The position numbers and the translations under genes were made by a program. Below, in pieces: positions 11,194 to 37,246 of a stretch of 45,354 nt of DNA (position 1 is its first letter; each line of letters begins with the position of its first letter). The notes beneath the pieces are model-generated. The model was not told where the DNA came from and searched no databases. It saw nothing but the letters and a program-made list of their open reading frames with translations. Origin of the DNA: Candidatus Micrarchaeota archaeon. Lineage in GTDB: Archaea > Micrarchaeota > Micrarchaeia > Anstonellales > Bilamarchaeaceae. The stretch is from positions 13,526 through 58,879 of the forward strand of contig JAHFFJ010000003.1 in assembly GCA_023248035.1 (NCBI GenBank). The letters run 5' to 3'.

Positions 11194-14100
11194 TTGCACA
11201 TGAACTTGGATAGAACACGAAAAACCATAAATAGTTACTTTTATAAAGAGTTTCTGCCATATTTTATCACTACATTTCTGAGAGATGATATTATGGCAGG
11301 TTTACCAACTAGGACACGAGAGAACATAAGAGCAGACAGAGAGGCACTTGGAAGAAGAGCATTGGTACCTTGGAGCGGCGCAAGAAAAATGGCAAAAGCT
11401 CTTGCAGTAGAAGAAGCGAATCTTGAAAGATTAGAAGGTGTGCGTAGTGAAGAAATTGTTAGAAAAGAAGTACGTGAAGGAACTATAAACAGATCACCAG
11501 AAGCAACAGCAGTTGCTGGTGGATTTGTAGTAGAATTTACTAATGCACTCCAGAGAGAATTAACAAGCGGACAGGAACGAACTCAAACGGGTCTTGATGG
11601 GGATGCAAGCATAAGAAGAGTGCTTTGTAATGGTACTTTCGTCGCCGGAATATTAAATACAATTAGAAAAACACCGCTTGAGGAGAAGGATAGTCAATAC
11701 GCAAATGCAATGACAAGAGTGCGGCAGAACCTGGGAGCAAAACTTGCTGCAGGATCTAACCCAGCACATACAATACCTGCTCTTAACGCCCAAGAATGGG
11801 ATATTATTTACGTTACAGCATCCGAACTCCAGCAACGGAATGAAGTTAATGCAATTGATGAGATCATTACATTTGCTGAGCAGGTAGGATTACGGAGATA
11901 TGCGGCCGACAGCAACAAAAATCCAGGAGAATTTGTAGCTTCTGTACTTGCCGATCTTGCAACAAAAGTAACAATAAGCGATGACTCCCCAGCAGGAACA
12001 CGTTCAAAATTGATAGATGATAGCCCGATAAAAAGTTATCTTGATAATAAAGCCAACGCAGCAATAGAAGATGCAGTTGGTGAACTAAAACAAATTACAA
12101 GAATCATTAGATTGGATTCCGGTCAACTTGGTTCTGTGGTAGATAGTTTCCGTGCGGGATTGACTGAAGGTCTTGATTCAACTGCACTAAAGCAGCGTGT
12201 GGTAGAATTAGTAGGTGCTGAAGGAGAGTTGGTAGGTAGGATAGGAGAGGCAGTAGATAATATTTTTGGGAGACTCAATAAACGCAAACCAGGAAGCCTT
12301 ACTGATGGGGAGTGGATAAAATCAATTAGTGTATGGGAAAGACGACCACAAGGAATAGCAAGTCCACCAATGCCAAATGAAGGAAAGATGGAGAGAGCCG
12401 GCAAAGCAATAGCCTATCTTGCCACAGCAGAAGCTTGGTTACGATTGGTAGCATGGCTGTGGGATAAGAGTTTCAAAACTGATTTTGAACACCTTACACA
12501 CCCAACAGATAAAATAATGACAACTGACCAGAATGGGATTGCCCGTCCGACCTGGATGCCAAGAATATTCAAATTAATTCCAAGAATGCTTACCAGATAT
12601 GTTGTGTATGGCCTTATTTTGGGTTCAGTAACAGGAACTACACTTATTGGCGGCCCTTATTATTATGCACCTGAAAGAAGCTGGGCTAAAACATGGACAT
12701 GGCTAGCCGCTCAGGAAAAAGACCGCAAAATTGTCCGAACAATAACTGACGGTTACGAGAACCCAAAAAAACTCACTAAGCGCGAAGATGACTATTACAA
12801 AAAAACATTTGGATTAGATAAAAGAACCGGTAGTGAGACTGATGATAATGGGATAAATGATAGGGTAAATTGGCTTAAGGAACATCCGGAAGTATTGACC
12901 TATCTTCAGGAACATGTAACAGGAAGAAAAATATTGGAATATAAAGAACTCCACGAAAATCCGGACACTTGCGGCGTGGTAGGAGGAGCGAAAAAGAAGG
13001 TTGCAGTTACCGCAGGCCCACAACCAAAAGTGAGCAAAAGCTGCGATAAATTGGGAGTAACTACAGTCCAGCAAGTAGAAGAATACCAGCCAGTCGATAA
13101 GGATGATAAATGGAAGCCCGGGAAAACTATTTGCTGCCTTATAGATATGGAAGTAGAACCAGTAGCAGATGGTTTAAGGCTCAATCCTCACTTTGCTGCA
13201 CAGTTTGTAGCCGAACTTAAAGAAGTTTCAGATAAAGGCACAAATGTAGATAGGGCATATCTTGAGGATGTTGATAGGCGTGCTAGCCTTGTAGAAAAAG
13301 GAATTCTCATAAGTGAATCTCAGAAAAAGATAATGGATGAATGTGGAATAAAAGAGTACAAGAATGCACAATTTGTAGCCACACAAGGAGTGTTTGAATT
13401 ACTCCGTCCACGATGTAAAAAGGGCGAAGCTGTAGTTTTCATTCCTGAAGATAAACGAGATGCCTATGTTGCAACATGGATTGCTACAGTACAAAAAGTA
13501 CAACCGGGAGTAGATCCTATAGCTTATGCAATTTCAGAGGATGTGATTAAACAAACTGATTCTGCAATTCTTAGTGCAGGAGTTAGCCAACAAATACTCG
13601 TAGATTCTTCCGCACTTTATAAACAAACCCAGATAAGGAAAAAATTCGAAGTGCTTGATTTCAAAACTCAGACCGCAGTAGATATTTTAGTTGCACAGCC
13701 GGACATTGCAGAGCTTCTTGAAAAGTTCATTAAAGATGGTGCAAGCTATAAGGTCAACCCAGCACGTTCGGATGAACTGGTTGCTGCTATTGCAAGATAT
13801 AAGTCAACGAGGAAAAACATTGGTGACTTTGATCCATTTACCGATCCGCCAGGAGTAATGGTTAAAGGTGCATTAGGAAATGGATTAGTGACTACCACCC
13901 AAACCGAAATTAAAGCGGATAAAAAACCACAAATAAAGTGGGATGATGATACAAAAAAATTCTATGAAACAAATGCATCTTTAGATGGTATTGTAGATGC
14001 GATTTTAACCATCATCCAAAAGGAAGCTGTGAGGGATGGGTCAGATTCAGAACTTATAGAAAAACTAACGAAGGAAAAATTCAACGGAAAGAAGGATGAC

Positions 14101-14322
14101 ATGGTACAATATTTCAAAGCTGCTGCAAAGGATTTCCTTACAAGCAAAGATGATGATATAGTAAAAATCCGCGATGGAAGTGGTGAAAAAGGAAGTCTTG
14201 TTGGTATGAAAATAACTGGTGAGGGTAACGATATGAAAGTAGATATTGCAGCCAGTGATGTAAAAAAAGCCAGGGACGCAATGAGGCAACGACTACATGC
14301 ATGGCTCACTGAGCAGAAGTAA
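11194..14322 (+). CDS. orphan large protein A (1042 aa) with two internal hydrophobic helices; alternative starts at ATG 11200 or ATG 11293 (MAGLPTRTRE)
   Basis: 3.1-kb ORF with normal composition and no N-terminal signal peptide. Hydrophobic segments are AIAYLATAEAWLRLVAWLW (about aa 405-424) and YVVYGLILGSVTGTTLIGGPYYY (about aa 467-490). No family recognised. Confidence 0.8.
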   Translation: MHMNLDRTRKTINSYFYKEFLPYFITTFLRDDIMAGLPTRTRENIRADREALGRRALVPWSGARKMAKALAVEEANLERLEGVRSEEIVRKEVREGTINRSPEATAVAGGFVVEFTNALQRELTSGQERTQTGLDGDASIRRVLCNGTFVAGILNTIRKTPLEEKDSQYANAMTRVRQNLGAKLAAGSNPAHTIPALNAQEWDIIYVTASELQQRNEVNAIDEIITFAEQVGLRRYAADSNKNPGEFVASVLADLATKVTISDDSPAGTRSKLIDDSPIKSYLDNKANAAIEDAVGELKQITRIIRLDSGQLGSVVDSFRAGLTEGLDSTALKQRVVELVGAEGELVGRIGEAVDNIFGRLNKRKPGSLTDGEWIKSISVWERRPQGIASPPMPNEGKMERAGKAIAYLATAEAWLRLVAWLWDKSFKTDFEHLTHPTDKIMTTDQNGIARPTWMPRIFKLIPRMLTRYVVYGLILGSVTGTTLIGGPYYYAPERSWAKTWTWLAAQEKDRKIVRTITDGYENPKKLTKREDDYYKKTFGLDKRTGSETDDNGINDRVNWLKEHPEVLTYLQEHVTGRKILEYKELHENPDTCGVVGGAKKKVAVTAGPQPKVSKSCDKLGVTTVQQVEEYQPVDKDDKWKPGKTICCLIDMEVEPVADGLRLNPHFAAQFVAELKEVSDKGTNVDRAYLEDVDRRASLVEKGILISESQKKIMDECGIKEYKNAQFVATQGVFELLRPRCKKGEAVVFIPEDKRDAYVATWIATVQKVQPGVDPIAYAISEDVIKQTDSAILSAGVSQQILVDSSALYKQTQIRKKFEVLDFKTQTAVDILVAQPDIAELLEKFIKDGASYKVNPARSDELVAAIARYKSTRKNIGDFDPFTDPPGVMVKGALGNGLVTTTQTEIKADKKPQIKWDDDTKKFYETNASLDGIVDAILTIIQKEAVRDGSDSELIEKLTKEKFNGKKDDMVQYFKAAAKDFLTSKDDDIVKIRDGSGEKGSLVGMKITGEGNDMKVDIAASDVKKARDAMRQRLHAWLTEQK

Positions 14323-14709: not shown

Positions 14710-17700
14710 ATGGCTGGCGAACTTATACGAAAAGACCAAACCGCAGAAAAACCAATAGTAATTCCACGAAGAACACCAGTTCTGGATGATACCGAAAATA
14801 AAAATCTTGAAGCTGCTATGAACAAAGCTGGAATTGCAATTTCAGATATAGTAAATCACGCTCATGTAGTAGAAAAGCGGATACCGGTGGGTTTAGAAAT
14901 AAAAAAGGAGATTGTCGAACTTAAAACAACTATTTTAGCCCTCAAAAAGGAGATCGTTCCAAATGTACCAGTGCTCGGTGAGCAATATGCAATAGACCTG
15001 GAATATATAGAAAAAATAGTAAACAGGGCAGAAAAGTCATTTACAGAAAAGAGATGGGTGGAGTGCGTTGATCTTCTTCGTCAGGCACGAAAGATGATAG
15101 GAGCAATGCCAGAAGTTTTTGGAGTCCAGAGAGAGGTTATACTTATGGGCTACCCAATAGAGATGGGTCCCGAAAAACTCGATCGCTTTCTTAATGCAAT
15201 AGCAGGTTCACTTCATGATTTTGGAACTGGCAATGAGAGGCGCGCAAAATTCATACTTGACCTCACTAGGCACTATATCAAGTACGGCGGAATTTATACT
15301 ATCAAGAATGATTTGGTTGTTGCAGAGCGCGATCGACTTGTAGATACTACGATAGCAAGGGGTTTAGCTTCACGTAAAAATGTTAGATATACCGATTATG
15401 ATGCAGCAGTTGACCGGGATGCACTTGCAGCATTCAGAAAGACTGCAGAAATTATTGCAGATCAAATCAGACAGGAAAATACCAGGATATTCCGATTGTG
15501 GAGAGCAGATATAAGTGCCATTCTTACTGAGCGTGTCGATGAGACTACCAGAAAAAGATATGAGAGTTTTGGTAAGGAACTCGATGCTATGCTAGTAAGA
15601 TTACGTACTGCACAAACCGCAGGAAAAATAACAAGTGACGAACTAAATGAGATTGCAACAAGGTACTTTACACTGAGTGGCCGTGAAACTGCAGATGAAA
15701 GGGGGGAGAGAATAGTACAATCGGCAATGATGATTGGTACACCCAAGGCACTTGATGGAACTGCGGGGTGGTTTGCGCAAAGAGCAATTGATGCAGTTGC
15801 AGAAAGGCGCTATGGAGTTGCCGAACTCGCACTTGCAATGACATTATACATAAATGCAAGTGGACAGAAAAACGCTTCTAAAGACAAATATTACAAACAA
15901 GTAACAGATGTGATTAGAAATAATACTGAACCCAATAGCAAACTTATTGCAGAACTTGAAGCACTAACCTTCTTCCATAGAGTAGAGCGTGTAAAAAAGC
16001 GTCAACCAAAAAGCCCGCAGTTAGCAAGAATGATGGAGGTGCAAAAGACAGCACTTGAATATATAGCGAAAGGAAAACCCGAGGATGGGCGAACGCTAAT
16101 TGCAATGGGACAACGGTATCTGGATATTTTTACTGCAAACGGAAAAACTTCACCTGCAATCACTATAATAGAAGGCGCACTTGATCAGGCCATAAATGGC
16201 AAAGAGACATTTTTACAGTTCAACAATGGCGTTAGCTTATACAACTTTACATTAGATACAGGCAAACTTCGAACTTTGGCCTCAGAATGGGGAGCAGGAT
16301 TATCCCATGGGCGTGAATTTGTAGAAAAAATCTGTGGAAGAGTGGAGCAACTTGCTGCAAATGGCGATACTTGGGAAGCAAGAAAAGTTATGACATACCT
16401 GTTGATGTATAGCGATGCAGTGATACGCCTGGGCGAAATTAAGGGAGGGAAGGTAGTAGGGCATAGGCCACAATTTAGCGGTAAGGGAATGGAAAGTGCA
16501 CTTGATGCAGCCGCAGCAGGACAAAAAACAGTGGGCGGTAAGAAAGTAGAAAACGCTTTCATGGATGGCTGGAATGCCAATCAGATAGAATACGTCATAA
16601 TAGAGGCCAGAAGAATAAGTGACCTTGCCCAGAAAAGGAAGGTTGGGTCGGAAACAATAATCGAGGCTATGAAAGTTGCAACGCAACGGGGAGAGCAAGC
16701 AAAGAAAGATGAAAGCCTGCTTCCAGATGCATTAAGACTTGTATCTTATGCAGGTGAGTTTTATGGCCTCTTAGAGAAAAATAAAAACGAGGGTTGGAGA
16801 TACCAGCTCATAACAAGCAGTGTTGAAGGTTATCGCAAGGGCGGAAAGGATATTCTTGATGCTATTAGAATGGAGGCACAAGCAGAAACTGATCAGGATT
16901 TGGATGCAGCAGCCAATCTTTTTGAAGTTGGAATGGCAAGAGTGGATAGTACAAAACAAACAGTAGTGATGCTACTCCATGATTTCACTCAGGTAAAACT
17001 TACATTAAATACATTAGTAAGCCAACAGAGAGACCAAACTAACCTTAAGAGGCTTGTTGCATTTGAACAGGATTACTCAGCTGATTTGATTCTTAAGAAT
17101 GATATTGCGAATAGGAGTAAAGGAACGATAAATCAGCACCTTTCTGCAATGGAAAGTGCAGCAAAAGCAGGGGATTTTGAAGGATATAAAAGAGCAAGAG
17201 CAGCACTCGAAAGAAGAGTTGAACTTGTTTCTACTCAAAGTGAAAAATACCAGCTTATGGCTGCTGTTGCAGGTCTGGAAAATGCAAAGAAGGATTTGAT
17301 TGGACTTTATCAAAAGCATTTCGGAATAGACCAGTTGAAGACAGTAATTGATCTTTCACTTATGAGTGATGATCAGCTTGCTGCGCTTGCAAACACCACC
17401 GGAAGTACCCCTGGTGAAAACCTGAGGAACAGGTTTGCAGGATTAGAACTTAGAAGACACCAGCTTATTGCAAAAATAAGAGAAAGTGGAAGAACTGAGC
17501 TCAAATTGCCAGAAGCACTCAAAAAAGAGTTCATGGCTTTGGTTACCGATTATGATAGCGAAAGAAGAGTGGCAATTGCCTATCATGAAATATCTATGCA
17601 GCTTAAGCTTAATGACAGCTACCGTGAATCAGTATTCCATAGTGACCATGCCATGCGGGCTACAGTATTACAAGAGCTTGATGAGTCAAAAAAGCATCTT

Positions 17701-20700
17701 TTTAATGCACTTGGATTTTTGTTTAATGAACCATTTGGTGGAGGACCAGGGCCCCGAGTGAATAAAGTAGAAGTCGAATATAAGAATGCAATTGAATTAC
17801 GTGCAAGAGCATTGCAAAACTTTAGTGCAGAATTAAATCGAGGTAAAACTACAGCCGTGTTTTCACAACTTGAAGCTGACCCTACCGGAGTGTTAGGCTT
17901 CTACATAAAAGCGCATGAGGATTCATTAGGCGCAATTCTTGAAGGCTCCCCGGATGCAGGAGTTAAGAAAGCGCGGATAGCATCGATTATGGAGCAGTCA
18001 ATATTCTACATCAACACCACCCAGCTCTATCAGGGCAAAGCTGGAGATGGAAGCACGTATGGTGAATTGCAAACTGGAGTATTCATGCTTGCAAGCAAGG
18101 CGTTACGTGGAAATGCTGATGAAAGCCAAGTTGAAGCAAAGTACCACGAACTTAGTGAACTTGTAAAGAGTAATGACCAGATTAGTAGTGCAATAAAAGT
18201 TGGGGGGGCATTGTCACTTAATCTGGTTAATTTCTTAGTTCCCGGATTTGGAACTTATTTATCGACCGGGGCATTTGCAGGAATGGCAACTGATCAGGCT
18301 ATAACAGACTACAGAAGAGAGGGTACCTTATCACCTATGACAATGGTGCATCTTGGATTAGCAGTACTTCCATTGAAATTCGCAGTGCTTAAAGGTTTTG
18401 CAAAATCAAGGGCAGGAGCAGCACTATTAGCAGCAGAAAGTAGTAGTTTAACTAGAACAACCGAGCTTCTTGAAACTGGAGAAAGTTGGTCTAAAGCAGG
18501 CAGAGTAATCAATATTGTTGAGCGCCCCCTTATCGGATATTTCATGCTTGCTGGGGGAGGTGCTGCATATGAATCTTATAAGGAAAAGGATTGGGCGAAC
18601 TTCATACTAAATGCAGGAATGTTGGTTGCACCATTAGTACCTCACGTAGCAAAAGGCTATGAGAAAGCAAGCGAGTATATCGCACTTAGAAGAGCAGGAC
18701 TTGAAACAGTTGAAGAGGGTTATACTCACAAAAATCTTGCAGGCAAGATCTATACAGCAGCGCAGGTAGAAGTTGCATTGAGGCTTACAGAACGTATGAA
18801 AGAAAATGCAACGCTACGTGGTACTGATGATGTTAAACGAATGGAGATGGCACTTCGCCTGGTAGATTCCCAGCAACCAGTTCCTATTCCAAAAGAGGTA
18901 TCTGGAGTTCCAAACAGACCGGCAAATGATGTGGAACAACCTAAAGTTGTCATAAAACTAACCGAGGTCCCATTAACTTCAGCAGAAACACTTGCAGCCA
19001 GCCTTCAGGCTCCAGATGGGCTTTTCACATTCTTAAGAGAATATTTCAATCCTGCAACAACAGGAAGTGCGATGGCAAAAATTGCATCACTTCGTGAAAT
19101 TTATCCAGATACTTATTCAGGCATAAGAAAGGTGATAAATTCTATTGCAGAAAATGATGGGGCAAGAAATGCAATAATGAATGCAACGGGACCGCGCGAT
19201 CCCAATGTACAAATGCAGCAGGCACTTAGGAATGGCGCATCTCAAATCGGAAAACTACTCACTCCACCAGAAGCATTTGCGATGCCCGAAGTCCTGGCAG
19301 CAACAGGAACATATGGCCAGCAACTTCGTGTAGTACCTCGATTAAGGGTGGTTGGAGATGAGGTGCGTGCAACTGATCAAGCAGCACCACCAGGACCCAA
19401 TGCAGAAGTTGCTGCTCAGGATGGTAGATCTGCACCAACTGTAGTGGGAAGAGCGAGGCAGGCAGTAGCTCGAGTTATTCTTGGTAAAAAACCAGATTTA
19501 AAAACACCAGAACCACCAACAAAACTTGGTGAACTTCCAAAAACATTGATTGATGGTGCACAGAATATTCCAACTGAAAGTTCAGCTCAAATAGTAAAAG
19601 CAGCCTATGATGTTTACATAAAAGGAGCAATAGGTGATGTACCGCTAAGTCCTGAGGGAAAGGCAATTTATCTGGAAATAATAAAGAAATTATATTCTAA
19701 GGCAGTACGTAGCGAACTTGAAAAAGATGCAACCACAACAAAAATGAGAAAATGGTTAGATGATAAGATTGGCGCAACTGTAGATGCAAGAGAGGTTGAA
19801 AAAACAAGGCTACGGAGAGCAGGTGGAAAAATAATAAGCCCTGATGAACTGGAAAAAATAATTGATCTTGTAGGTGGAGCGCAACCAGTAGATAGTATAT
19901 CGACACTACTTAATGTCACCCTCAATCCTGCAGAGAGAGCAGCGCTTACTCTTAGAAGAGTAGATAGTTTACCCCCATCTGCATTGGATGGTCTTGTTAG
20001 TGAAGTACGTAGTTCAGAAGCTGCAGCAATACAAGCACTTGATATTGCTTTAAGTCCAGCGGCAAGAGCAATGCGAGTGCAGGTAATTCAAAAGGTAGGA
20101 GTGGTAGAAAGTTTGGATAGTGCTATGCTCGATGGGATGAAAGAAAGTAAAGAGATACTAGCTATAGTTAGGCAACAAGGAGAGGCAAAATACGCAAACG
20201 ATCCGAACCCACGATTACGCGACAAAGCGCCTGCTGATGGAGAAGCAGCCGTAAACGCATTCAAAGCAGCCACCACTCTGGATGATGCAGTTAAGTTATT
20301 ACCCAATTACATGGCAAGAGAATTGCAAAGTCTCCTTGGAGCAAGAAATGAATTTTCAGCTGCTTACAGTTTTGCAGAAGCAAATAGAATGGTTCTTGCC
20401 CGGGTGAGTGAAGGCGAAATAGGAAGGGCGGAGAGAGGAAGACCTATTGGGCCAGGTGCCATGAGAGCATTATCTTCTGGTGGCAAGAAGACATTAAATT
20501 TAGCAGGAACGGTTTTAGGTTATCTTTTTGATCCCGCAGGATTGGGTCATGGGGTATCTTTAGTGCGTGAGGCCCCGGTAGGTGGAAAGGTAAGAACAGG
20601 TTTAGGAAGGGCAGCTCGCGGAGTACCTTGGGGGATTGCCCAATTTGGAATCGGATATTATGGTTATGGTGCGTGGATGCGCTATGTTAAAGACGCACCC

Positions 20701-22896
20701 GAACGCGAGAAAATAATTCTAGAAATGGCACAGCAATATTACGGAAAAGTTTCTTTCGATAATGCTGGTTTCTTAATGACCAAAGATGGTAAAAGAGTGC
20801 GAGCGGACATAAGCCTTGGTCAACCTAAATCCGATGATTTACGAGTTACCAGCCGTCAGGGATTGAAAACCGCACTTGCAGATGAAACCCCAACTGTGAT
20901 CAATCCATCCAAACTGGACGAGATGATAAGTCAGTCAAAAGTTATGGCAGAAAAAGTTAGTGAACTAAATGATTATCTGGCAGCTGCATTAGGCCCAGCT
21001 CCTGGGAAAGTAGCCTCAGTAGTTAAAAAAACTCCAGATGAGGCAAAACAAGCTTTGACTGATAGTCTTGCTAAAATGGGCATAACCATAGCTTTCGAAA
21101 AATTAAGAGCAGAAATGGGAACAAAGAAAGAATTGGACATTGATTTACTTATAAAATTGAGAAAAGGCAAATACGGAGACTGGCAAAATGGAACGATGTT
21201 CACTCGTGCGCAGGCAGTTGCCTACCAGTTCTGCATTGATTCAGGAATGCTTGCCAATGAGGCAATGGAAAAATATCCATTCCTGCTTCAAAACAAGGAT
21301 CTCTTTGAATTCCTATGGCAGAGTACAACCACTAGGGTGATGCCAGCATCCTATGTTAGTAACGTTATTGCAGCACTTGAAGCTACCGCCCAGCTTGGAA
21401 ACGCTCGAGCTGATCCCGCCAAATTTGATAGTAACATGACTGCATGGGCAAAAACAAAAAACTTCATATTGGAAGCTCCAATCAGACCGCTTTCTTTCCT
21501 GAGCATTTTTGATAGGCAAGCTACAGAAGATATAGCAGGAGCTACAAAGACCGGATTTTTTGGTTTGGTTACTGCTAATCGAGCGAATGCTGCAGCAATG
21601 CAAAAATTGAATGACTTTGTAATAGATAGCAGTGAAAGAATATATGGTAACCCCTCAGATCTTGCAAAAATAATATTTGACACTGATCTTTCAAAGATAA
21701 ATCCCCTTCTCAATATAGCCAGAATAAGCCAACTAGTTAGGGATGGAAACACAACTGAACTAGAGTTGATACTTACAGGAACCGGAATCACACTAGAGCA
21801 GCTCGAAGCAACAAAAACAAGAGAAGGAAGAGATATTAGACTCTCAGACTTGAAAGATCCGATAACAAAAATACTGCAACCACTTGGAATATCATTTGAG
21901 GATATGCAGGCATATATCATAAGGCACAATAGAACGGATATCAACTTAGTAGATATTGCAAAACTACGTGGATTTGTTGGACCTGCAATGCTGGCAGAAA
22001 TCGATCCAAGAATGCGAGATTCACCTGAACTCGTCGCATTTGTAGGTAACAATTCGGATGGAACCGATCGCGGAGTTTTGAGATTTGTAAAAGATGGTCA
22101 AAAGCAGATGATAAAGCAGGATAAAACTTCCTCGCTTTATGAGATTCTTCAGGATCTCGCAACCAATACAACAGATAAAAAACCAGAAGAAATCTATGCT
22201 ATGAAAAGTGCAGTAAAAGATGAAAAAGTAGTTGGCGGTGGGAAGTTAGTACCTACCGGATATGCTGCAGATAAAGAGGATGTTTATCAGACAGAAGGAC
22301 TTTGGAGAGGCCCTACAGCTAGTAAGATTCGAGGTACCGCTCCTGGAAAAGAACTTACCGATGCAGAACTCGAAACCAGATCACAAAGCATATTCCAAAG
22401 GAGATATCTTCCTGATTATGCAGGTCAGCAATTTAAAGCAGATAAACCAAAAGAAGCCGAATTAAGCCCGCTCGAAATAGAGGCGAATAAATTTTATAGT
22501 AGTGAAAGAGGAAGTGAATTAGCTGGTCTGATAGAGGGCATAATAGCCCGAATGTATATAGATCAGAAAGGGGATGGACAACTTATTCGCGATGCATTTA
22601 CTCCCCAGAGAAGAGCCGAATTAGATACGGCAGCAGATATTGAAGCAGATAAAAAAATTACAAATACAGAGCAAAAACTAGAAACGCAGGCAAAAAGACG
22701 GGCGATGCGTGCAGTAATGAGTGCACTTTATGACACCATAAAAAGTACTGAGGCTGCAGATAAAAATAAGGTAGCTAGTTGGGGAATGGTCATAAGTGGT
22801 TCTGATGAAGAGATAAAAGTAACAATAAGCGATACCCGAAGAAGTGAAACCCCCATAAAGCAGTTTATAATCGGAGTTTTAAAGGTGGATAAATGA
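14710..22896 (+). CDS. orphan giant protein C (2728 aa), mostly helical, with a central cluster of 4-5 hydrophobic helices
   Basis: Uninterrupted 8.2-kb ORF preceded by a strong SD, with no N-terminal signal peptide. Hydrophobic cluster at about aa 1160-1312 (GGALSLNLVNFLVPGFGTYLSTGAFAGMA; MTMVHLGLAVLPLKFAVL; PLIGYFMLAGGGAA; FILNAGMLVAPLVP). A second Gly/aromatic hydrophobic patch lies at about aa 1927-1992. Confidence 0.9.
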   Translation: MAGELIRKDQTAEKPIVIPRRTPVLDDTENKNLEAAMNKAGIAISDIVNHAHVVEKRIPVGLEIKKEIVELKTTILALKKEIVPNVPVLGEQYAIDLEYIEKIVNRAEKSFTEKRWVECVDLLRQARKMIGAMPEVFGVQREVILMGYPIEMGPEKLDRFLNAIAGSLHDFGTGNERRAKFILDLTRHYIKYGGIYTIKNDLVVAERDRLVDTTIARGLASRKNVRYTDYDAAVDRDALAAFRKTAEIIADQIRQENTRIFRLWRADISAILTERVDETTRKRYESFGKELDAMLVRLRTAQTAGKITSDELNEIATRYFTLSGRETADERGERIVQSAMMIGTPKALDGTAGWFAQRAIDAVAERRYGVAELALAMTLYINASGQKNASKDKYYKQVTDVIRNNTEPNSKLIAELEALTFFHRVERVKKRQPKSPQLARMMEVQKTALEYIAKGKPEDGRTLIAMGQRYLDIFTANGKTSPAITIIEGALDQAINGKETFLQFNNGVSLYNFTLDTGKLRTLASEWGAGLSHGREFVEKICGRVEQLAANGDTWEARKVMTYLLMYSDAVIRLGEIKGGKVVGHRPQFSGKGMESALDAAAAGQKTVGGKKVENAFMDGWNANQIEYVIIEARRISDLAQKRKVGSETIIEAMKVATQRGEQAKKDESLLPDALRLVSYAGEFYGLLEKNKNEGWRYQLITSSVEGYRKGGKDILDAIRMEAQAETDQDLDAAANLFEVGMARVDSTKQTVVMLLHDFTQVKLTLNTLVSQQRDQTNLKRLVAFEQDYSADLILKNDIANRSKGTINQHLSAMESAAKAGDFEGYKRARAALERRVELVSTQSEKYQLMAAVAGLENAKKDLIGLYQKHFGIDQLKTVIDLSLMSDDQLAALANTTGSTPGENLRNRFAGLELRRHQLIAKIRESGRTELKLPEALKKEFMALVTDYDSERRVAIAYHEISMQLKLNDSYRESVFHSDHAMRATVLQELDESKKHLFNALGFLFNEPFGGGPGPRVNKVEVEYKNAIELRARALQNFSAELNRGKTTAVFSQLEADPTGVLGFYIKAHEDSLGAILEGSPDAGVKKARIASIMEQSIFYINTTQLYQGKAGDGSTYGELQTGVFMLASKALRGNADESQVEAKYHELSELVKSNDQISSAIKVGGALSLNLVNFLVPGFGTYLSTGAFAGMATDQAITDYRREGTLSPMTMVHLGLAVLPLKFAVLKGFAKSRAGAALLAAESSSLTRTTELLETGESWSKAGRVINIVERPLIGYFMLAGGGAAYESYKEKDWANFILNAGMLVAPLVPHVAKGYEKASEYIALRRAGLETVEEGYTHKNLAGKIYTAAQVEVALRLTERMKENATLRGTDDVKRMEMALRLVDSQQPVPIPKEVSGVPNRPANDVEQPKVVIKLTEVPLTSAETLAASLQAPDGLFTFLREYFNPATTGSAMAKIASLREIYPDTYSGIRKVINSIAENDGARNAIMNATGPRDPNVQMQQALRNGASQIGKLLTPPEAFAMPEVLAATGTYGQQLRVVPRLRVVGDEVRATDQAAPPGPNAEVAAQDGRSAPTVVGRARQAVARVILGKKPDLKTPEPPTKLGELPKTLIDGAQNIPTESSAQIVKAAYDVYIKGAIGDVPLSPEGKAIYLEIIKKLYSKAVRSELEKDATTTKMRKWLDDKIGATVDAREVEKTRLRRAGGKIISPDELEKIIDLVGGAQPVDSISTLLNVTLNPAERAALTLRRVDSLPPSALDGLVSEVRSSEAAAIQALDIALSPAARAMRVQVIQKVGVVESLDSAMLDGMKESKEILAIVRQQGEAKYANDPNPRLRDKAPADGEAAVNAFKAATTLDDAVKLLPNYMARELQSLLGARNEFSAAYSFAEANRMVLARVSEGEIGRAERGRPIGPGAMRALSSGGKKTLNLAGTVLGYLFDPAGLGHGVSLVREAPVGGKVRTGLGRAARGVPWGIAQFGIGYYGYGAWMRYVKDAPEREKIILEMAQQYYGKVSFDNAGFLMTKDGKRVRADISLGQPKSDDLRVTSRQGLKTALADETPTVINPSKLDEMISQSKVMAEKVSELNDYLAAALGPAPGKVASVVKKTPDEAKQALTDSLAKMGITIAFEKLRAEMGTKKELDIDLLIKLRKGKYGDWQNGTMFTRAQAVAYQFCIDSGMLANEAMEKYPFLLQNKDLFEFLWQSTTTRVMPASYVSNVIAALEATAQLGNARADPAKFDSNMTAWAKTKNFILEAPIRPLSFLSIFDRQATEDIAGATKTGFFGLVTANRANAAAMQKLNDFVIDSSERIYGNPSDLAKIIFDTDLSKINPLLNIARISQLVRDGNTTELELILTGTGITLEQLEATKTREGRDIRLSDLKDPITKILQPLGISFEDMQAYIIRHNRTDINLVDIAKLRGFVGPAMLAEIDPRMRDSPELVAFVGNNSDGTDRGVLRFVKDGQKQMIKQDKTSSLYEILQDLATNTTDKKPEEIYAMKSAVKDEKVVGGGKLVPTGYAADKEDVYQTEGLWRGPTASKIRGTAPGKELTDAELETRSQSIFQRRYLPDYAGQQFKADKPKEAELSPLEIEANKFYSSERGSELAGLIEGIIARMYIDQKGDGQLIRDAFTPQRRAELDTAADIEADKKITNTEQKLETQAKRRAMRAVMSALYDTIKSTEAADKNKVASWGMVISGSDEEIKVTISDTRRSETPIKQFIIGVLKVDK

Positions 22897-25361
22897 CAGC
22901 AAGCGTATCATTATCCGGAAACCAAATAGTAATATTTTGCGACAAGGGAGGCTTATCAAAAAGCAGGTCTACTGGAATAATGATTGATACCAACAACCCA
23001 CAAAACATAGCTGCACAGATAGAGAGTGCAAAAAAAGCAGCAGCTGCATTTTTTAAAACTTTTAATGGTGGCGATGCTGATGTGATGGCAATAAATGCAA
23101 ATGCAGCTGCCAATGCCATAAAGAAGAGTCTTGGAATTGCTGATACTAAAGCAGAGCCAGTAGCACCTCCAGTTGCAAAAGCTCCTGCTCCAAAACAAGT
23201 GGCACCGAAACCTCAACCATCCACTCGAACTGAACAAAAAGTGCCTCCAAAAAAAGAGGCAGCAAAACCTGGAAACCCCGCTCCTGAACCGAAAGCTGCC
23301 GAACCAAAACCCAATATGGGAGGATGGAGGCCACTTAGAAGCAATGAGGTTTTACCTGAAGTTCGTGCAGTAGCAACTCCATTGCAAGGTAAACTCAAAC
23401 AAGGAGAATATCAACAGCAAACAGTAGGTACATTTAGCTATCGTTTCCGTGCTGAGCAACACGATCCAAGAGTACCAAATGGCATAAGCATTTACATAAT
23501 TCAAACACAATACGATCAGCTAAAAAAATACCTCGAAAAACTGGGAGCAGGAACGAATCCGGTAGATTCCACCCCACGCCCAACAATATCTGTGGAATGG
23601 ATACAACAGCAACTTCGCGATTCAAAAGATGATAGAAAAGGTTTAGCAGCAGCAACTTTAGCCCATCAAAATCGAGAGTATGTTGATGGTTACATTTCCG
23701 GTAATAGGAAAGAAACCACAGTAGCTTTATTTGACGCCCTTTCAGATATACCGAGCTTTAAACTTTATTTGGATTCAGTTGCCTCAAGAAAAGTACTTCC
23801 GGAATTTATAGATCTGCAAAAATCGCTCACTGAAAATCGAGGAAAAATTGAAGATAAGCAAGTAAAAGCTGCAGATTTGTACATAAGATATTTCTTATTC
23901 GGATTTGGTGCAATAAATAACCCCCAATACAATAAGGAAGTAAACCAGATTACTGCGATAATAAATGGATTAAAAGAATCCGATCCATCTGGCCAAGTAC
24001 TTATGCGAATTTATGGTTCTGGATCGGTAGATGGTGATACATTAACATCAGCATTACTTTACATAAGAAGATGGAATGCAACTCATCCAAAAAGTGGCAT
24101 CGTAAAACCAGATGAACAGGTAGCTTCTTGGAACGCACCAAAACAGGCGATGCCAGAACAAAAAATAACTGCAGGGGATGCATTTAGCCATCCAAGAATG
24201 ATTATAGTTGGAGATTCTATTTTTGCTGGGGATATAATGACCCCAAAATTACGGGCTCATCTTTTAACTGTTGATCAAAAAGCCACATTATTGAACAAAG
24301 CAGCTTCCAGTGCTCATCTTGAGGATATAAAAAGGCAGCTAGATGCAGCATTAGCTGATAAAAGTTCGAATATTATACTTATTGACGGGGGAGTTAACGA
24401 CATTGGTGCCAAACCAGAAGACATAATAAAAAAAATTGCAGCCATGCGCGATAGCGCATTAGCTGCGGGAAAAGTGGTGATGGTAGCAAAGCTTACGCCT
24501 TGGGGTAACTCCAGGTTTTGGAAAGAAAACTTACAAGAAACCTGGGAGAAGGTAAATGCAGAGATTACAAAATGGAATGATCCGCAAAAAGGAGTTTATG
24601 TAGTTGATTTTGACTGGCTTGGAGAGGGCAACCCCCCGCACATGAAACACGAGTATGCTAGCATAAGCAGCAAGGGAGAAACAGACTGGCTTCATCCAAA
24701 TACCAAAGGAAGGCAGGAGATGGCAGATTTCATATTTAGGATGATGAGTGCACGAACTACCAGCGGGTTTGCGGAAGGAAACGTGAATGTTCTGCCAGAT
24801 CTCTACCAAAAAGTTGCATTGGCAACACCAGAAGGCCTAGTAAAAATAGTTAGGGATAAATCCCAGAAAGTAGAGGATTTCGAAAAACAAAATAAAGATA
24901 GTATAAGAAAAACTTTTGATAGTGCATTTAATGAACTGCTTCATGAAAAAACCAAACCAGTTGGCCGAAATTTTATGACTTTCATACTATCGCAAACAAA
25001 ATACCGTGCCCTTGCAATGGCTGCAACAAGACTAAGTGATGAATCAAAAGAAGAGGATAGAAAGTTGGTTGCACAAGCAGTAGGAGAATTCTTAGCGAAA
25101 GAGGCGACAAATCCTAAATTCAAAATCGACCTTGCAGTTCTCAATGATAATAAGGCTTTTGGAGCGGGAACTATAAATGAACCTGACATGCGAACACTCA
25201 CTGCAATTGCGGTTTATGGCTGGAGAGTGAAGAATCCCCAGGCAGCTGGAGGAGAATGGGGAAGAGCACTTGGCATAGAGCCTCCCAAGGAGATAAAGGT
25301 AGAGCCACCAGTTGTTGAAAAAAATGCTCCACCACCAGAAAGAAGAACATTATCTTTCTGA
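22893..25361 (+). CDS. multidomain protein D (822 aa): N-terminal domain, Pro/Ala/Lys-rich linker, unknown domain, SGNH/GDSL hydrolase domain, C-terminal helical region
   Basis: ATGA overlap with gene C. SGNH blocks: I MIIVGDSIFAGD (aa 436-447), III LIDGGVNDIG (aa 496-505), V DWLHPNTKG (aa 598-606). The linker is aa 85-140 (EPVAPPVAKAPAPKQVAPKPQP...PEPKAAEPKP). Confidence 0.85.
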   Translation: MTASVSLSGNQIVIFCDKGGLSKSRSTGIMIDTNNPQNIAAQIESAKKAAAAFFKTFNGGDADVMAINANAAANAIKKSLGIADTKAEPVAPPVAKAPAPKQVAPKPQPSTRTEQKVPPKKEAAKPGNPAPEPKAAEPKPNMGGWRPLRSNEVLPEVRAVATPLQGKLKQGEYQQQTVGTFSYRFRAEQHDPRVPNGISIYIIQTQYDQLKKYLEKLGAGTNPVDSTPRPTISVEWIQQQLRDSKDDRKGLAAATLAHQNREYVDGYISGNRKETTVALFDALSDIPSFKLYLDSVASRKVLPEFIDLQKSLTENRGKIEDKQVKAADLYIRYFLFGFGAINNPQYNKEVNQITAIINGLKESDPSGQVLMRIYGSGSVDGDTLTSALLYIRRWNATHPKSGIVKPDEQVASWNAPKQAMPEQKITAGDAFSHPRMIIVGDSIFAGDIMTPKLRAHLLTVDQKATLLNKAASSAHLEDIKRQLDAALADKSSNIILIDGGVNDIGAKPEDIIKKIAAMRDSALAAGKVVMVAKLTPWGNSRFWKENLQETWEKVNAEITKWNDPQKGVYVVDFDWLGEGNPPHMKHEYASISSKGETDWLHPNTKGRQEMADFIFRMMSARTTSGFAEGNVNVLPDLYQKVALATPEGLVKIVRDKSQKVEDFEKQNKDSIRKTFDSAFNELLHEKTKPVGRNFMTFILSQTKYRALAMAATRLSDESKEEDRKLVAQAVGEFLAKEATNPKFKIDLAVLNDNKAFGAGTINEPDMRTLTAIAVYGWRVKNPQAAGGEWGRALGIEPPKEIKVEPPVVEKNAPPPERRTLSF

Positions 25362-26587: not shown

Positions 26588-26661
26588 GTTCAGGCAAAAT
26601 AATTAATTGTTTTAGCAAAATAAGTTAATTATTTAAAAGTTTTGTTCATAATATTTAACTT

Positions 26662-27192
26662 ATGTTCAAAAAATTGAACTTATTTTCAAAAACAGAAATG
26701 GAACTTTTAACTTTTATTGCATCTAAAGATGGCGAATTTTATGAAAGGGAGATAACACGACTTACTGGTATAAGTGTTGGTTCAGTAAATAACATTCTAA
26801 AAAAATTTACTGACCTGCATTTTGTAAACAAAAAGAAGAAAGGACGGATGCAATTTTATAGTAGAAACCAGGAAAACCCTTTAATACGGCAGTTTAAGGT
26901 TTTCATTATAATATATGGCCTAATTCCATTTTTATCAAAAGCCTCACCACATAGCAAACGGATAATACTTTTTGGAAGCTGCGCTAAGGGACTTAATACC
27001 GAAAAAAGCGATATAGACTTAGTTATAATTTCAAAAGAAAAAGAACTGCTAAGAAGAATATTTGACCAAGAGGCAAGAATACAATTAATAGTTCTAGATT
27101 CTGTTGAATATGCTGAGCTTGAACAAAATGATAAACCACTTTATGAACGCATTGAAATGGGGATAGAATTACATGGTGAAGGGTATGGATGA
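26662..27192 (+). CDS. winged-helix + minimal nucleotidyltransferase (MNT) protein, antitoxin-like partner of HEPN
   Basis: N-terminal wHTH (EREITRLTGISVGSVNNILKKF), then ILFGSCAKGLNTEKSDIDLVII (the G-S-x(n)-D-x-D NTase motif). It overlaps the next gene by 20 nt. Confidence 0.75.
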   Translation: MFKKLNLFSKTEMELLTFIASKDGEFYEREITRLTGISVGSVNNILKKFTDLHFVNKKKKGRMQFYSRNQENPLIRQFKVFIIIYGLIPFLSKASPHSKRIILFGSCAKGLNTEKSDIDLVIISKEKELLRRIFDQEARIQLIVLDSVEYAELEQNDKPLYERIEMGIELHGEGYG

Positions 27193-27616: not shown

Positions 27617-27653
27617 ATTAGACTGGATAGAATAAGCTAGTTTTATTTGCATT

Positions 27654-28142: not shown

Positions 28143-28166
28143 TCTATAATCAGTGGAGTGGAATAA

Positions 28167-28678: not shown

Positions 28679-31600
28679 TCAGAAACTCACTTTTGCATAT
28701 CCCATAATCCATAATGGCATTCTGCCATTGGTTATGCTTGTTGCATAAGGCTGCATGGTTTCTTCCTGAGTAATATCAGCAGCTACATTAGGCCAGGTTC
28801 CGCGTGCTCCCGTTAATGAGAATGTATATGAACTACCAATTAATTCTCTTTGTTGATCACTAAAAGAAACCCCTACACCTGCCCGGAACACAAACTGGTT
28901 GGTAAGGTCAGATGCAGAACTAACAGTGCTTTTGTAGCCTGTATATCCTGGGTAGGTTGCCTGTTCACTAGCAACATAAAAGTCCCGCCTTGATTCAACA
29001 CCACCCTCAAAGAAGAGATGGAGTGCTAGACTGCTTCCGCTTGATATATTGGCTCTTGCCCAGGTGTAACCAGTACCAATTGTAGTACGGCTAAAGTTTC
29101 CAAGATCACACTTGCCTTCGTTTACGCAAAGATCGTGTTCTTCCTGGGTAGTTACGATTACTTTTCTTTCAGTGCGATTAAAGGCGATGTAGAAATAATG
29201 ATTACTGCTCATTTTTTCGGTTGTAATGCCGCTCACTCTTGCAGTGGTTGCTACTTTCCATGATTTCCAGTCTTCGTTTCCAAACTCACGTATTCCATAA
29301 AGCGCACCTGCAAGCCAGTCTCCTTTTTGATCCTGAAGGAGTTGAACAAGACCACCAACGGTGAAGTTCTTTCCAGCTTGGTATGTGGTTCCAAGAATTT
29401 CAGAATTCAAAGGCAAAGTTATTCCTCCAACCACACGGGCTGCAGTAAGGAAGCTCATTCTGCGATCTCCGGAAAATACAAAGTCATAGCCATCACCACT
29501 GCGTTTTATTTCAACTTTGACTATACCCCTGCCAATGAAATAGCCTTTCTTTTGCCAGTCTTCAAGATCAAGGTCATTACCAAGACGAAGAGAGTAACGT
29601 GCACCTGGATTTGCAGCATCACCAGTAACTAGCATATAAAGATGATCATAGCGAGGTGCCTTGGCTCCAAGTGCAGCTTCTTTCTGTAGCTGCGCCCCTA
29701 GAATTACATCATAATTTTCAGGATGCCTTGCAAGGATAGGATCGGGAAGCGATTGCAACACAACAGCGGCCATGTTCTGCTCAAATAGCTGGGCAACTTC
29801 ACCGCCAGATAATTTTTCTGAACCTTGAGACTGTTTTATAGGCGCATCAGCGATTGCCTTTAGCACTCCTTCTGAATTCTTTTTGAACTGTGAATCCATT
29901 CTCTTTTCTGGTAGGAGTACCCATTCAAGTGCAACTGGAGAATGACGAATCACACTCACAAGATCTTTACCATATTTAGATTCGAGTCTTTGTACATCAG
30001 GTGTAGGAGCACGAAGTTCGCTATAGATATCTGCAAGAGCCTTTGCAAGATCAGCAGTCTTGTCCTCTGATTTTATAGTTGGCTTAAAGTTGACCATCAT
30101 TTGCCTAACTGCGGGCTCTTCGAGCCTTGCACTTATTTCCCGATCGATTTCAGAAACAGGACGAACAACCCAACTAAGATTAGCCTGGCTGCCCCTAACT
30201 GCAGTTACAAATGGTTTTCCATAAGCATCCTCAAGGCGGCTGAAGTTTGAAAAGTCTGAACCAAATTCAACATAGCAGTCACGAAGTGCGCGAACGGGTT
30301 GTGCCTGCTTAGAAACATGCAACTCGTGTTCATAACGATTTACTTGGATTGCTGGCCAGTCCACCACTCCAAAGCCACCATAAAGACTGGTGTATGGAGT
30401 AGATTTTTGTCTTTGCACATCAAGACGAGCAGTTCCAGTTGCTGCATCTCCACTTTCAGTTATGACAACAGGTGCGTATTGGAATGCGTGTGCAGCAACA
30501 TCGAAATATGTGCTGGTTGGCCTTCCGAAAAGTACAAGTCCATAAAGGCTTCCATAAGCAGATGAAAGATCATCGTATGCAGGATTCTTACCTGCTGCAG
30601 CTACAACATAAATTCTTGTCTGTTCTCCATCATACCCATAACCTAGAGCAAACTTCCAGATGTCCTGTTTCATTGCATTTTGCATATCCTTAGATAGACC
30701 TTCAAGTATCGATTGCTCGTTTTCCGGTGAGGTAGTAATTTCATTCATTGCCCGATCAATGCGATCGGAAATTGCACGGAAACCAGGAACCCGCTCACCA
30801 CCAACAAGAATGCCATGGCGATTGGCCCAGTACATCATAAGCACTGAAACATAATTAGGATTGAGCCTTGGAACAGTCTTGCCATTTGCATCGACTTCTT
30901 GTGTTGAAGTAGAATAACTACCATCAGGATTTTTCACTACCCAATTCTCAAGCTGGCTGTACATGTAGCTTGCAGAAACCAGCCACCCAACATTGCGTGC
31001 TTCATCTTCCGACCAGTGATAGGCATGAACAAGACTATTTACTGTCTTGGTGTACATTTTGTCGGTTTCCGCACTCACTGCACGGAAATCCTGTAAAAGG
31101 TCGACTTCGTGATGAGAAAGTGTAAGTCCATATGCAGTAGTACGTGTTTTTGTAGGACGATCTTCACGACGATATCTTGCACCAATTGTTGGTTGCGGAC
31201 CTCCTCCTGCAAGCCTTAATTCCCAGCTTGATTCTAGTGGGTCAATACGCACCGTACGCCACATAAGTTCTCCTGTTCCCTCTGACCAGTGCGAACCTGT
31301 TATTGAAGGAGCAGCAGTGGGATTTTTTGGATCAACTGCAGCACGATCAAGAACCTGAGTGCCGCGATAGAATCCTGCATAAATGCTTCTTTGTTTCTTG
31401 CTGCTAAGAAGATCAGTAATTGCCATACCAGCAGCCTGCTCGACATGAAGGGGATCCATGGTGTTGATGTTTCTTACAAGTTCACCAAAAGTGAGGGCAG
31501 CAAAATTATCACCAACTCCACGAGGTATAGTTATACCTACAGCAGCACCATCAAAACCGTGGGCTGCCGAATCGCTAGTAAGCATTTTACTTCCCATAAA

Positions 31601-34600
31601 TTTAAGCGAGGCAAGAATGTTGTCCTGATTGGTATTGCCAAAAAGGTAGTTGAGTATTTGTACCGAAGTATCATTTCCAACTGCATCCCGGCTGCTATTA
31701 AGTCCATATGCAACCTGATAGATCCCGCCTTCTGGTGTAAGGATATAGGCACGGGTCTTTAGCTTGTCGTTCTTGGTCTGGACAACAGTACCAGCACTAT
31801 CCTTTAGTTCTGGAACATGTTCGCCTGCAACAAGAAGGAGCATGTCAGTTCCGCTATTACGAGCTATTCTTGAATAACTTTCAAAAAGTCCAGAAGTTTT
31901 TAATGCAGTAGTAAGGCTTTGTGAAGTTGGATCTGCCATTGTCCCGCCGGAAACTTCTTTATCAGTAGAAGCAAATTCGTGATGGAATAAAGCACGGGAA
32001 CGAATAAGGTCATCTGCACCTGGAACACCAAGTCTTATTCCCCCTGCCCTTGCCTCCACATCTGCGTTACGAGTGACTGTTGAGGTTGCAGTTTTTATTG
32101 GTGGTGCATCTGGTTGGTCGGCTAGTGGAGGTGCACTATAAGCATCATCAGTTTTCGTCTCACCAGTATAAATGGCACGTTCAGTTACACCGCCAGTTAT
32201 ACCACGATGAACCCCAAGAGCAGCAGCACCCGCACGACTGGTGGTAGCCGCCCGGTCACTTTCAATAGAACCAAATCCACCAGCTTCTGCATTGTGACTA
32301 AGCCAATAGCTGCTGTAGTCGGTGGGCATTGGACCAAAGAGCTTGGTGAGGCTGCGAATTATTGTTGCTTCACCTATTGCATCGATCTTAAATGGTGAAG
32401 GCACTCTCAAACGGAATAATCTTTCAGTTGGTGGTCTTAGCCCTTCATACATTCTTGTGAAACCTGCTCGCGCACCGGAATCTAATGTAAAGCCACCAGG
32501 AACTGGAAGGCTTGGGCTAGTTGGTGCAGTTGGACTAAAGTCAATTGAAAATGGGAATGGGTTGACACCATAAAGATTTGGTATTTGCGGGGGTTGGGCG
32601 AAAAGAGGAGAGGGTTTGTAACGATAGAGGAATGGGTTTAGGTAGCTTTCATCAGTTAGAGGTTCTGGTATTCTCCTAAGTTCATCCTGAAGACGGGTGT
32701 GATCGTAGGTACTTGTGATGATGGGAAGATTCTTTCCAATTTTTTCGAAGACTTCGAGGAAATATTTACGATTAATTGAAGTGCTATAAGCAAGGTCACG
32801 CATACCATCCTGATAGCGGGTGGAGAAGAGGTTGTTAAATGCAGTAATTGCTGCGACCAGGCTCTTTTCATCAGGACAAACTTCAATAAGAGCTGGAAGG
32901 ACATTGAGAAGATAGGGACCAACAAGATAAGGATCCCGGTGAGCAATAAGAAGTACTGAATCCATGGTTGCCCGTGCAGCCTGGGAACTGAATGCAGAAT
33001 CTGTTCCTCCGATATGTTCAAGAGCTACACCAAGATAAAGTGCATCAAGTATGCTTAGCTGATTTCTTAGGCTCTTGATAGAATCATCACTATACTCCCA
33101 TCCAAGCGAACTCACATTGGTTCCTTCTTTTTCTCTCGACATGAGATAGTTGGTCTCGAGCTGATCGTAGAATTTATGTCCGGCAGCAACAAGCGACCGT
33201 CCGGATTCTGAAGTTAAAAATGATACCATATCTTCTGGTGAACGTAAGCCTCTTGAAGCAACTGAACCAGTTAGTGATAGGTTGTAACGTTTTGCAAGAC
33301 GTCCAACACTTTTATTGAGCAAATCGAGGTTTATGTATTGCCCAAATAGATAGTCGCTTGCACCAAATTCCGATCTATAATGTTCTACTGCATGACGAAG
33401 GTTGATTTCAAAACTACCTACCTGACCTGGTGTTGAATCAACTGCATTGGAAAATGAAAGCGCGGATTTAATATCAACATAAACCTGTGGCACAACATCA
33501 GCAACATGATGGAAATTATACATAAAGTTTGCACGTCCAGGCCCAGGGCCTTTATCAAATGCAGCATTAAGTCCCTCCTCTAATCCTGGTTTGAGGTTGT
33601 GAAGATCATTTGGATCTTTTATCGAGCTAAGCTCTTTCTGGTTGGCAAAAACAAAACGTACCAATTCCGGACCGTATGCCTCCCGAAGCTCATTGACCAC
33701 CCTTATATAATCTGCTTTGTATGGCTCCGAATCTTGCGGAGTAGGTGCATGGGTAATTCCATCTTCATAAATTTTCACAACTGCATCATAAAGGTGGTTG
33801 TCCTGTTTTCGGTAGGCATGCATGAGTATCTTGTTAATTTTAGGAGGGATATCAGAAACTTTGAATGCTGGATTTTCAAGAACCCTAAGATCATGAAGAT
33901 TGCTTTCTACTCCAGCTACAAATGCTGACCCATATTGTTCATTAAGCCTTACACGATTGCGCTCATCCAGGCCTCCTGCCCTAAGTTCGGAATACAGCCT
34001 TCCAAGAACCTGAGGATAGGTCCGATCATCCATACTGTTTATGAATCGATAAAGTTCGGGAGTGGCACGATAAAGCACGCTTGCAACCACATCACCAATT
34101 GCAGATTGTTTTTCATGGGTGAGGTCTTTTTGTCCGGTACTTTCATACCATGCAAGGAGTCTTTGAAGAGTTACCGTATCCCCACTTGAAACTGAAAATC
34201 CTGAAGTGGAATTTATATCTCCGCCAGTTTCGGCAAGATGAATCATTGCAAATGCAAGTTCAGCAGCTTTCCTAAGTTCAAATCCGTTTACCATCTGATT
34301 TCTTAGTTGGTCCTGCTGATCACTGATTCTTTTTAGGGATTGGTGATCTCCGCTTGATTCAGCTGCTGTTTTGAGGCGTTCGTTTTCCCTCCTCCATTTC
34401 CATAGATGCTCACGTAAAACCGCTCTTGCTGGGACAAAAATATCTTCACCAAGCTGGCGTTCAACATCTTTAGCTGCAGCTTCCAGTTCATTATAAGTAT
34501 TGCTTATTTCTTGGATTTTATCGCTAATTTCATTGCCAGAAACAACTGGCCCGCTAGAAATCGTAACACGTGAGGTTACAGGATTGACAAAGAGCGTACC

Positions 34601-37211: not shown

Positions 37212-37246
37212 CTTTATACTATAGTAGTTATATTATTTTATACTAT
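37212..37246 (+). promoter_or_regulatory. putative promoter/operator of the wHTH gene: 10-bp direct repeat tttatactat x2
   Basis: tttatactat occurs at 37213-37222 (TATA-like, ~27 nt upstream of the ATG at 37245) and again at 37237-37246, overlapping the start codon. Both lie in the 178-nt region shared divergently with giant gene F. Confidence 0.35.

Follow-up and report, generated by a model that had tools for sequence, protein, structure and literature searches.

The window analysed here is a stretch of 45,354 nucleotides from a Candidatus Micrarchaeota archaeon (contig JAHFFJ010000003.1, positions 13,526 to 58,879), lying within contig C41 of a 1.17 Mb genome that comprises 83 contigs and is 90% complete. 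Its forward strand carries gene D (P0001; 22893..25361), which encodes a protein of 822 amino acids (aa) with an SGNH/GDSL hydrolase domain and belongs to a cluster of giant orphan genes in the order ftsY–A–B–D–G. The ATG of D overlaps the stop codon of gene B as ATGA, with GGTGGA upstream, and a hydropathy scan of D reveals neither a signal peptide nor a transmembrane segment, in line with the original prediction, made from the sequence alone, of a leaderless protein in a giant operon; D is indeed encoded alongside giants and coupled to B in translation. The architecture of D was derived from an alignment of 15 orthologues (D and 14 others) together with an AlphaFold2 model built from 7 sequences (mean predicted local distance difference test score, pLDDT, of 62). 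From one end to the other, the protein consists of a small N-terminal module, a flexible linker, a small alpha/beta domain, a helical repeat, the SGNH domain (aa 434-620; 24192..24752), a second helical repeat and a conserved C-terminal tail. What is new is threefold: two orphan helical domains that arose by duplication enclose the SGNH domain, and terminal beta-motifs sit on Pro-rich tethers; the gene is set in a conserved giant orphan-gene cluster of one Micrarchaeota genus; and the SGNH module behaves in evolution as a repeatedly discarded part.

The placement of the SGNH domain at 24192-24746 (aa 434-618) in the original prediction, with Blocks I, III and V following one another within the open reading frame (ORF) 22893-25361, was borne out by profile searches and by predicted structure alike. 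Against Pfam, D exceeds the curated cut-offs of both PF13472 (42.1 bits for a cut-off of 32.9, with model positions 2-177 of 178 matched by aa 438-613) and PF00657 (36.9 bits for a cut-off of 23.6); a scan of D against NCBIfam gives no match. A profile of D and its 14 orthologues matches solved SGNH hydrolases with expect values (E) from 4e-17 to 1e-14. In the AlphaFold2 model, the pLDDT is about 70-90 across the domain (aa 434-620), which shows five parallel strands (435-439, 465-468, 494-498, 528-532 and 568-571) flanked by helices. When this model was compared by Foldseek with the known structures in the PDB, all 50 of the 50 matches listed proved to be SGNH folds, each with a probability of 1.00, among which the acetyl-xylan esterase PbeAcXE (7TOH; E 3.5e-6, 22% identity), E. 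coli TesA (template modelling score, TM-score, of 0.70-0.78), sialate O-acetylesterases, platelet-activating factor (PAF) acetylhydrolase and PatB. Against predicted viral structures (BFVD), the model of D matches tail-fibre and tailspike esterases. The close neighbours of the domain in sequence and structure are mostly acetyl or short-acyl esterases, including a polyvinyl-alcohol acetyl esterase.

Regarding the catalytic residues, Block I (IVGDSIFAGD, aa 438-447; 24204..24233) presents G440-D441-S442 after the strand 435-439, and the nucleophile Ser442 of the GDS motif (codon 24216..24218) aligns with Ser188 of PbeAcXE. Asn502 in Block III (GGVNDIG, aa 499-505; 24387..24407) aligns with Asn265 of the same enzyme, while Asp598 and His601 in Block V (DWLHPN, aa 598-603; 24684..24701; DFLHPN in 7TOJ) align with its Asp363 and His366. 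In PbeAcXE, these four residues have been assigned by experiment to the triad and the oxyanion hole (PMC9105624), and the Ser-Asp-His set announced for D from its motifs appears intact in this alignment, with Asn502 in addition. In the Block II region (NKAASSAH, aa 468-475; 24294..24317), the place of the usual oxyanion-hole glycine is taken by Ser472/Ser473. Four of the five sequence features that are the hallmarks of the SGNH superfamily are found in D, as is the fold, the Block II glycine being the feature that is absent. Since Ser442, Asp598/His601 and Asn502 are kept, the SGNH domain of D is probably catalytically competent, as far as alignment and model can tell. The domain is a divergent new member of a well-known superfamily and the enzyme itself is ordinary; SGNH esterases are common and nothing yet indicates an unusual chemistry for D.

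The domain lies within a core built by duplication. Helical repeat 1 (aa 228-425; 23574..24167), which ends in a D.DT...LYIRRW...W.AP motif, precedes it, and helical repeat 2 (aa 625-802; 24765..25298), which is the best-modelled part of the scaffold with a pLDDT of 73-92, follows it. The two repeats are homologous (hhalign probability of 89%, E 2e-6 over 113 columns), so that, from this profile alignment, D has at its core a helical domain of ~190 aa duplicated in tandem, and the SGNH domain is an insertion between its copies. The original prediction had seen an unassigned region of ~290 aa before the enzyme and a helical tail of ~200 aa after it: the former is present and can now be split into a small alpha/beta domain and repeat 1, and the latter is indeed helical and is refined to a second copy of repeat 1. 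Searches with the helical repeats against Pfam and PDB sequences return no match and, when the full model was submitted to Foldseek against the PDB and the predicted viral structures, the matches listed comprise only SGNH folds and none for the helical repeats.

Around this core, the N-terminal module (aa 1-80; 22893..23132) is made of three beta-strands plus helices and bears the motif M..V.L.GN.IVI...G..R.TG; it begins at the initiator Met and is conserved at the extreme start in all orthologues, and a metagenomic protein (P0038) consists of three tandem copies of it. Its V.L.GN.IVI… pattern loosely resembles the 'GM.I[ST]G…[IM]KV.I' stretches at the C-termini of A and B (14170-14322; 22740-22896). 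A hidden Markov model (HMM) of the module finds no other copy in the same genome, the similarity to the A and B C-termini falling below detection; this resemblance, seen in motifs, may mark a candidate docking tag. The module is followed by a flexible linker rich in Pro, Ala and Lys (aa 85-140; 23145..23312; pLDDT <40), the composition of which had been rightly described, the length being 56 residues by count instead of 55, with P, A or K at 37 of them. At the other end, a Pro-rich spacer leads to the conserved C-terminal tail (25299..25358), …PPPERRTLSF in D and RRRV[IL]xx at the end of the orthologues, in which the tail appears strand-like after the Pro-rich spacer. The …RRTLSF end of D (25299-25358) is reminiscent of the …AKVSF end of G (28679-28700, reverse strand), a likeness that could reflect a shared docking or sorting signature.

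The small alpha/beta domain (aa 141-218; 23313..23546), arranged as strand-helix-three strands-helix, is not found in the aligned orthologues and is common only to D and a paralogue on contig C59 of the same genome (Smith-Waterman z = 7.6; 0 of 2000 shuffles). Modelled alone (pLDDT 73), it gives no significant structural match, the best having an E of 0.29, and the sub-threshold hints are limited to PAS-like, longin-like and Cache-like folds. A PepSY or cystatin-like fold had been guessed for this domain and is left unsupported by the same structure search. The paralogue (C59:8451-11492; L002/L038) is another protein with an SGNH domain, at least 1014 aa long and running off the contig end, in which a D-type helical repeat (E 3.5e-10) is followed by the small alpha/beta domain and then by the SGNH domain. 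It lies 138 nucleotides downstream of an S-layer gene (C59:5331-8261; Pfam S_layer_C; signal peptide), and a full-length orthologue of it was found in none of 39 genomes of the genus.

In its distribution, the D family is narrow. Matches to D occur in 30 of 36 sampled genomes of the same genus, most of them ~800 aa long with 30-36% identity, and in none of 24 sampled genomes from other genera of the order; on these sequence searches, full-length relatives of D are confined to one Micrarchaeota genus. When 1.84 billion representatives were searched exhaustively with HMMER, 76 proteins reached E ≤ 1e-3, and the non-SGNH scaffold is shared by about 45 of these. Word-indexed searches with D or with the 15-sequence alignment returned D alone, probably because they were swamped by low-complexity words, and a scan of JGI metagenomes found no relative of D. 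Among the stand-alone SGNH proteins, the nearest relatives (P0045, P0055, P0060 and P0061) have N-termini of the signal-peptide, lipoprotein-like or membrane-anchor type, and the closest sequence group of the D domain is therefore largely extracytoplasmic. PF13472 is also present in other very large ORFs of the genus, namely G005:C9 (4312 aa), G018:C1 (1942 aa) and G005:C3 (1288 aa), from which it follows that esterase modules in giant proteins recur in this lineage.

Not all members of the family contain the enzyme. The SGNH domain is missing from 4 of the 15 aligned orthologues and from about 15 of 40 complete family members, in which the two helical repeats are directly adjacent; these orthologues keep the scaffold and the same cluster (L028-L031). 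In a tree of the scaffold only, presence and absence of the domain require ~5 changes by parsimony, at least 2 of which are forced by well-supported branches, and one SGNH-less pair is nested within an SGNH-bearing clade with 99% support. As it has been lost several times while scaffold and cluster persist, the module is best seen as an accessory and not as central to the system. Nearly all members that have the domain retain Ser and His; in one subgroup of orthologues, GAS replaces GDS in Block I and Block III is degenerate. The tree of the SGNH domains themselves is poorly resolved, with the D-embedded domains clustering far above chance; a single origin of these domains is possible.

Turning to the neighbourhood, the cluster starts downstream of ftsY with gene A (11194..14322, forward strand), an orphan of 1042 aa, followed by the orphan giant B (14710..22896, forward strand; 2728 aa), D and the giant G (28679..37066, reverse strand; 2795 aa), which has a hydrophobic N-terminal leader. 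The order ftsY, A (~1040-1480 aa), B (~2830-3190 aa), D and G (~2800-3100 aa) is the same in every locus examined, and in most relatives (L019-L027 compared) G comes directly after D on the same strand. In the window, G is inverted and five genes (25460-28649) stand between D and G, including gene E (375 aa), a nucleotidyltransferase/HEPN pair, a 162-aa ORF and a HIT-family gene; gene E is outside the conserved cluster, and the interval suggests a local rearrangement or an insertion. In the relative L030, a nucleotidyltransferase/HEPN pair is located between ftsY and A instead. The giant B has two or three central hydrophobic helices, which its orthologues retain near residues 1220-1335, consistent with the membrane-inserting giant of the original prediction. 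The hydropathy scan shows no leader in A, in D or in the N-terminal 1160 aa of B, and A, B and G give no Pfam match.

The surroundings are those of an archaeal chromosome, with genes for a Bud32-like kinase, fibrillarin, ribosomal protein S19e, aIF6, prefoldin, the signal recognition particle receptor FtsY and aTrm56 near D. The window has a GC content of ~40%, the genus relatives carrying D are labelled Ca. Bilamarchaeum, and a matching GC content of 40% is given in the description of Ca. Bilamarchaeum, which comes from groundwater (PMC8561730). Next to the start of G, positions 37245-38774 hold a winged-helix/AbiEi-like regulator (HVO_2833_C) and then a DUF6036 nucleotidyltransferase, an AbiE-like pair of toxin-antitoxin type. 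At 43295-45352, a forward-strand gene running past the window end encodes a probable secreted protease, a subtilase (Peptidase_S8) that carries a thrombospondin type-3 repeat.

Bringing these observations together, the favoured reading, to which a probability of roughly 0.45 is given, is that D acts as a tethered, dispensable glycan or ester deacylase and as a modular accessory of the ftsY–A–B–D–G cluster; for this protein, the analysis establishes domain identity, residue conservation, architecture, synteny and repeated loss, and we infer activity, substrate class, location and tethering. The conserved beta-motifs at its ends and its flexible Pro-rich linkers would hold D on the giants, and the SGNH module would deacylate glycans or similar ester substrates, taking off acetyl or other short acyl groups at the envelope or at cell-cell contacts, as an optional payload in the manner of a phage tail-fibre esterase. 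An envelope-glycan deacylase is favoured because of the acetyl and short-acyl esterases among the neighbours, the matches to phage esterases, the exported stand-alone relatives and the paralogue adjacent to an S-layer gene. The conservation of A–B–D–G in the genus, the hydrophobic helices of B and the leader of G are also counted in its favour.

Several points weigh against it. A signal peptide or transmembrane segment is found in none of the ~45 family members, so that an extracellular site would need an unknown export route; this family-wide absence of a secretion signal is the main weakness of any envelope-directed role. A cytoplasmic role is a serious rival. The distribution of the SGNH module fits repeated loss from the family, as judged from the scaffold tree, and two genomes with an SGNH-less D, G004 (90% complete) and G028 (81% complete), have no PF13472 match genome-wide, from which SGNH activity appears dispensable and not compensated elsewhere. 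The model of D rests on 7 sequences with a mean pLDDT of 62. Besides, serine stands in for the Block II glycine, D having A470-A471-S472-S473-A474 where most orthologues have G-V-S-G-E. This glycine acts in the oxyanion hole through its backbone amide and not through a side chain. A Gly-to-Ser change in Block II is moreover documented in the active OatA domain of S. pneumoniae (PMC9487903) and, for these two reasons, the serine of D is taken as a variation rather than an inactivation.

A protein remaining in the cytoplasm would act as an esterase or thioesterase on small acyl esters or thioesters, such as acyl-CoA or scavenged acylated metabolites, maybe bound to those parts of A and B that lie in the cytoplasm; it would not act directly on the envelope. 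Besides the missing signal peptide or transmembrane helix in D and its orthologues, this agrees with the leaderless A and N-terminal 1160 aa of B, and with the TesA-type thioesterases and lysophospholipases among the best structural matches (TM-score of 0.70-0.78). The best natural profile matches are, however, polymer or glycan acetylesterases and not TesA, the nearest stand-alone SGNH relatives bear export signals or anchors, the partner G has a leader and the paralogue adjoins an S-layer gene; serious as this rival is, we hold it unlikely. The intact Ser442, Asn502, Asp598 and His601 of D, along with the conservation of Ser and His at ~30% family identity, which argues for selection on catalysis, bear in turn on the idea that the SGNH domain is decaying or is a purely structural spacer between the helical repeats, devoid of catalysis. 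This very unlikely option draws on the repeated loss of the domain, on the GAS subgroup with its degenerate Block III and on the Block II glycine absent from D.

The original prediction had proposed that D, coupled to membrane-inserting giants, would remodel or harvest a partner cell envelope or its lipids. The lipid part of this proposal fares poorly, the nearest structures being mostly acetyl or short-acyl esterases. A lipase or phospholipase harvesting or perturbing the lipids of a partner membrane would suit the names of the Pfam families, GDSL-like lipase/acylhydrolase, and the structural neighbours include TesA/lysophospholipase L1 and PAF acetylhydrolase. By the general view, DPANN archaea rely on their hosts for lipids, but archaeal membrane lipids are ether-linked, with no ester bond in the core lipid, and the known hosts of Micrarchaeota are archaea. 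Because of these ether linkages, an archaeal partner is an unlikely target for a lipase; as acetyl groups are what the closest of the characterised relatives act on, and many relatives do without the module, lipid harvesting is a less likely role than envelope-glycan deacylation and, taken by itself, quite improbable. The presence of PatB among the Foldseek matches listed brings up transfer in place of hydrolysis, by an O-acyltransferase of the OatA/PatB type that would add acetyl to a glycan, for instance on the S-layer or on the giant G. Such an enzyme is the least probable of all the explanations considered, since the PatB match is weaker than those of the esterases, most orthologues keep the Block II glycine, and neither an MBOAT (PF03062) nor an AT3 (PF01757) donor partner was matched in the 90%-complete genome.

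Going further than the tethered deacylase favoured above, A–B–D–G might as a whole form a genus-specific giant-protein contact apparatus, in which D would be an exchangeable adaptor-plus-payload presenting the SGNH domain, as a 'receptor-destroying' deacetylase, to the surface glycans of a partner. The two helical repeats of D would dock on the giants through the terminal beta-motifs, and D would be exported without a classical signal peptide. This extended proposal is doubtful; if true, the apparatus would give archaea a counterpart to the tailspike esterases of phages and the haemagglutinin-esterases of viruses.

Little is understood of the ways in which DPANN archaea attach to partner cells and exploit them, and their giant orphan proteins provide few starting points for experiments. 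As the sole protein of the cluster in which an enzyme domain can be recognised and readily assayed, D is its most tractable experimental entry point, and its substrate specificity and location could yield the first biochemical clue to the function of the cluster. The orthologues with and without the SGNH domain provide a ready-made natural comparison for this purpose.

Compared with known systems, D stands closest in structure to the acetyl-xylan esterases (AcXEs) PbeAcXE (7TOG/7TOH) and CspAcXE (7TOJ), which have the same SGNH fold with an extra domain N-terminal of it. PbeAcXE is the best Foldseek match to the D model, at 22-23% identity and the E of 3.5e-6 given above, with an E of 7e-15 for the family profile, and D shares with FjoAcXE-like AcXEs the DxLHP of Block V and the GVNDI of Block III. 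These enzymes are secreted and bacterial, with a beta-sandwich CBM-like domain, GNSI in Block I and GIGG in Block II (PMC9105624), whereas D is archaeal, has GDSI and an AASS lacking the Block II glycine, bears no signal peptide and is flanked by helical and alpha/beta domains. Membership of the FjoAcXE-like family was considered for D and set aside: it departs from that family in Block I, Block II, the CBM-like domain and the secretion signal, and is a structural neighbour only. The best natural profile matches (E 5e-16 to 4e-13) are the Bacteroides-type GDSL acylhydrolases and sialate O-acetylesterases (4PPY, 4IYJ, 3P94, 4HF7, 7PZH and 6NJC), with the same SGNH core length and block order as D; unlike D, they are single-domain, secreted proteins of ~200 aa, and mostly uncharacterised structural-genomics targets. 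E. coli TesA/TAP (thioesterase I/protease I/lysophospholipase L1), of which the TM-scores of 0.70-0.78 are the highest when normalised by the target, has Ser, Asn, Asp and His in the same order but is periplasmic and single-domain, keeps the canonical glycine (Gly44) and is only 16-20% identical.

The C-terminal domain of OatA and PatB also have the same SGNH fold, and S. pneumoniae OatA shares with D the replacement of the Block II glycine by serine (PMC9487903); they differ from D by their membrane AT3 or MBOAT partner, and their structural match is weaker. As for phage tail-fibre and tailspike esterases, they have no homology with D beyond the SGNH domain, and D is chromosomal and archaeal and is not known to belong to a virion or an attachment organelle. 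Yet, as in D, their SGNH domain is a single module built into a large assembly of several domains or proteins and, by this likeness of arrangement, the phage tail-fibre esterase would be the best analogy for D as a tethered payload.

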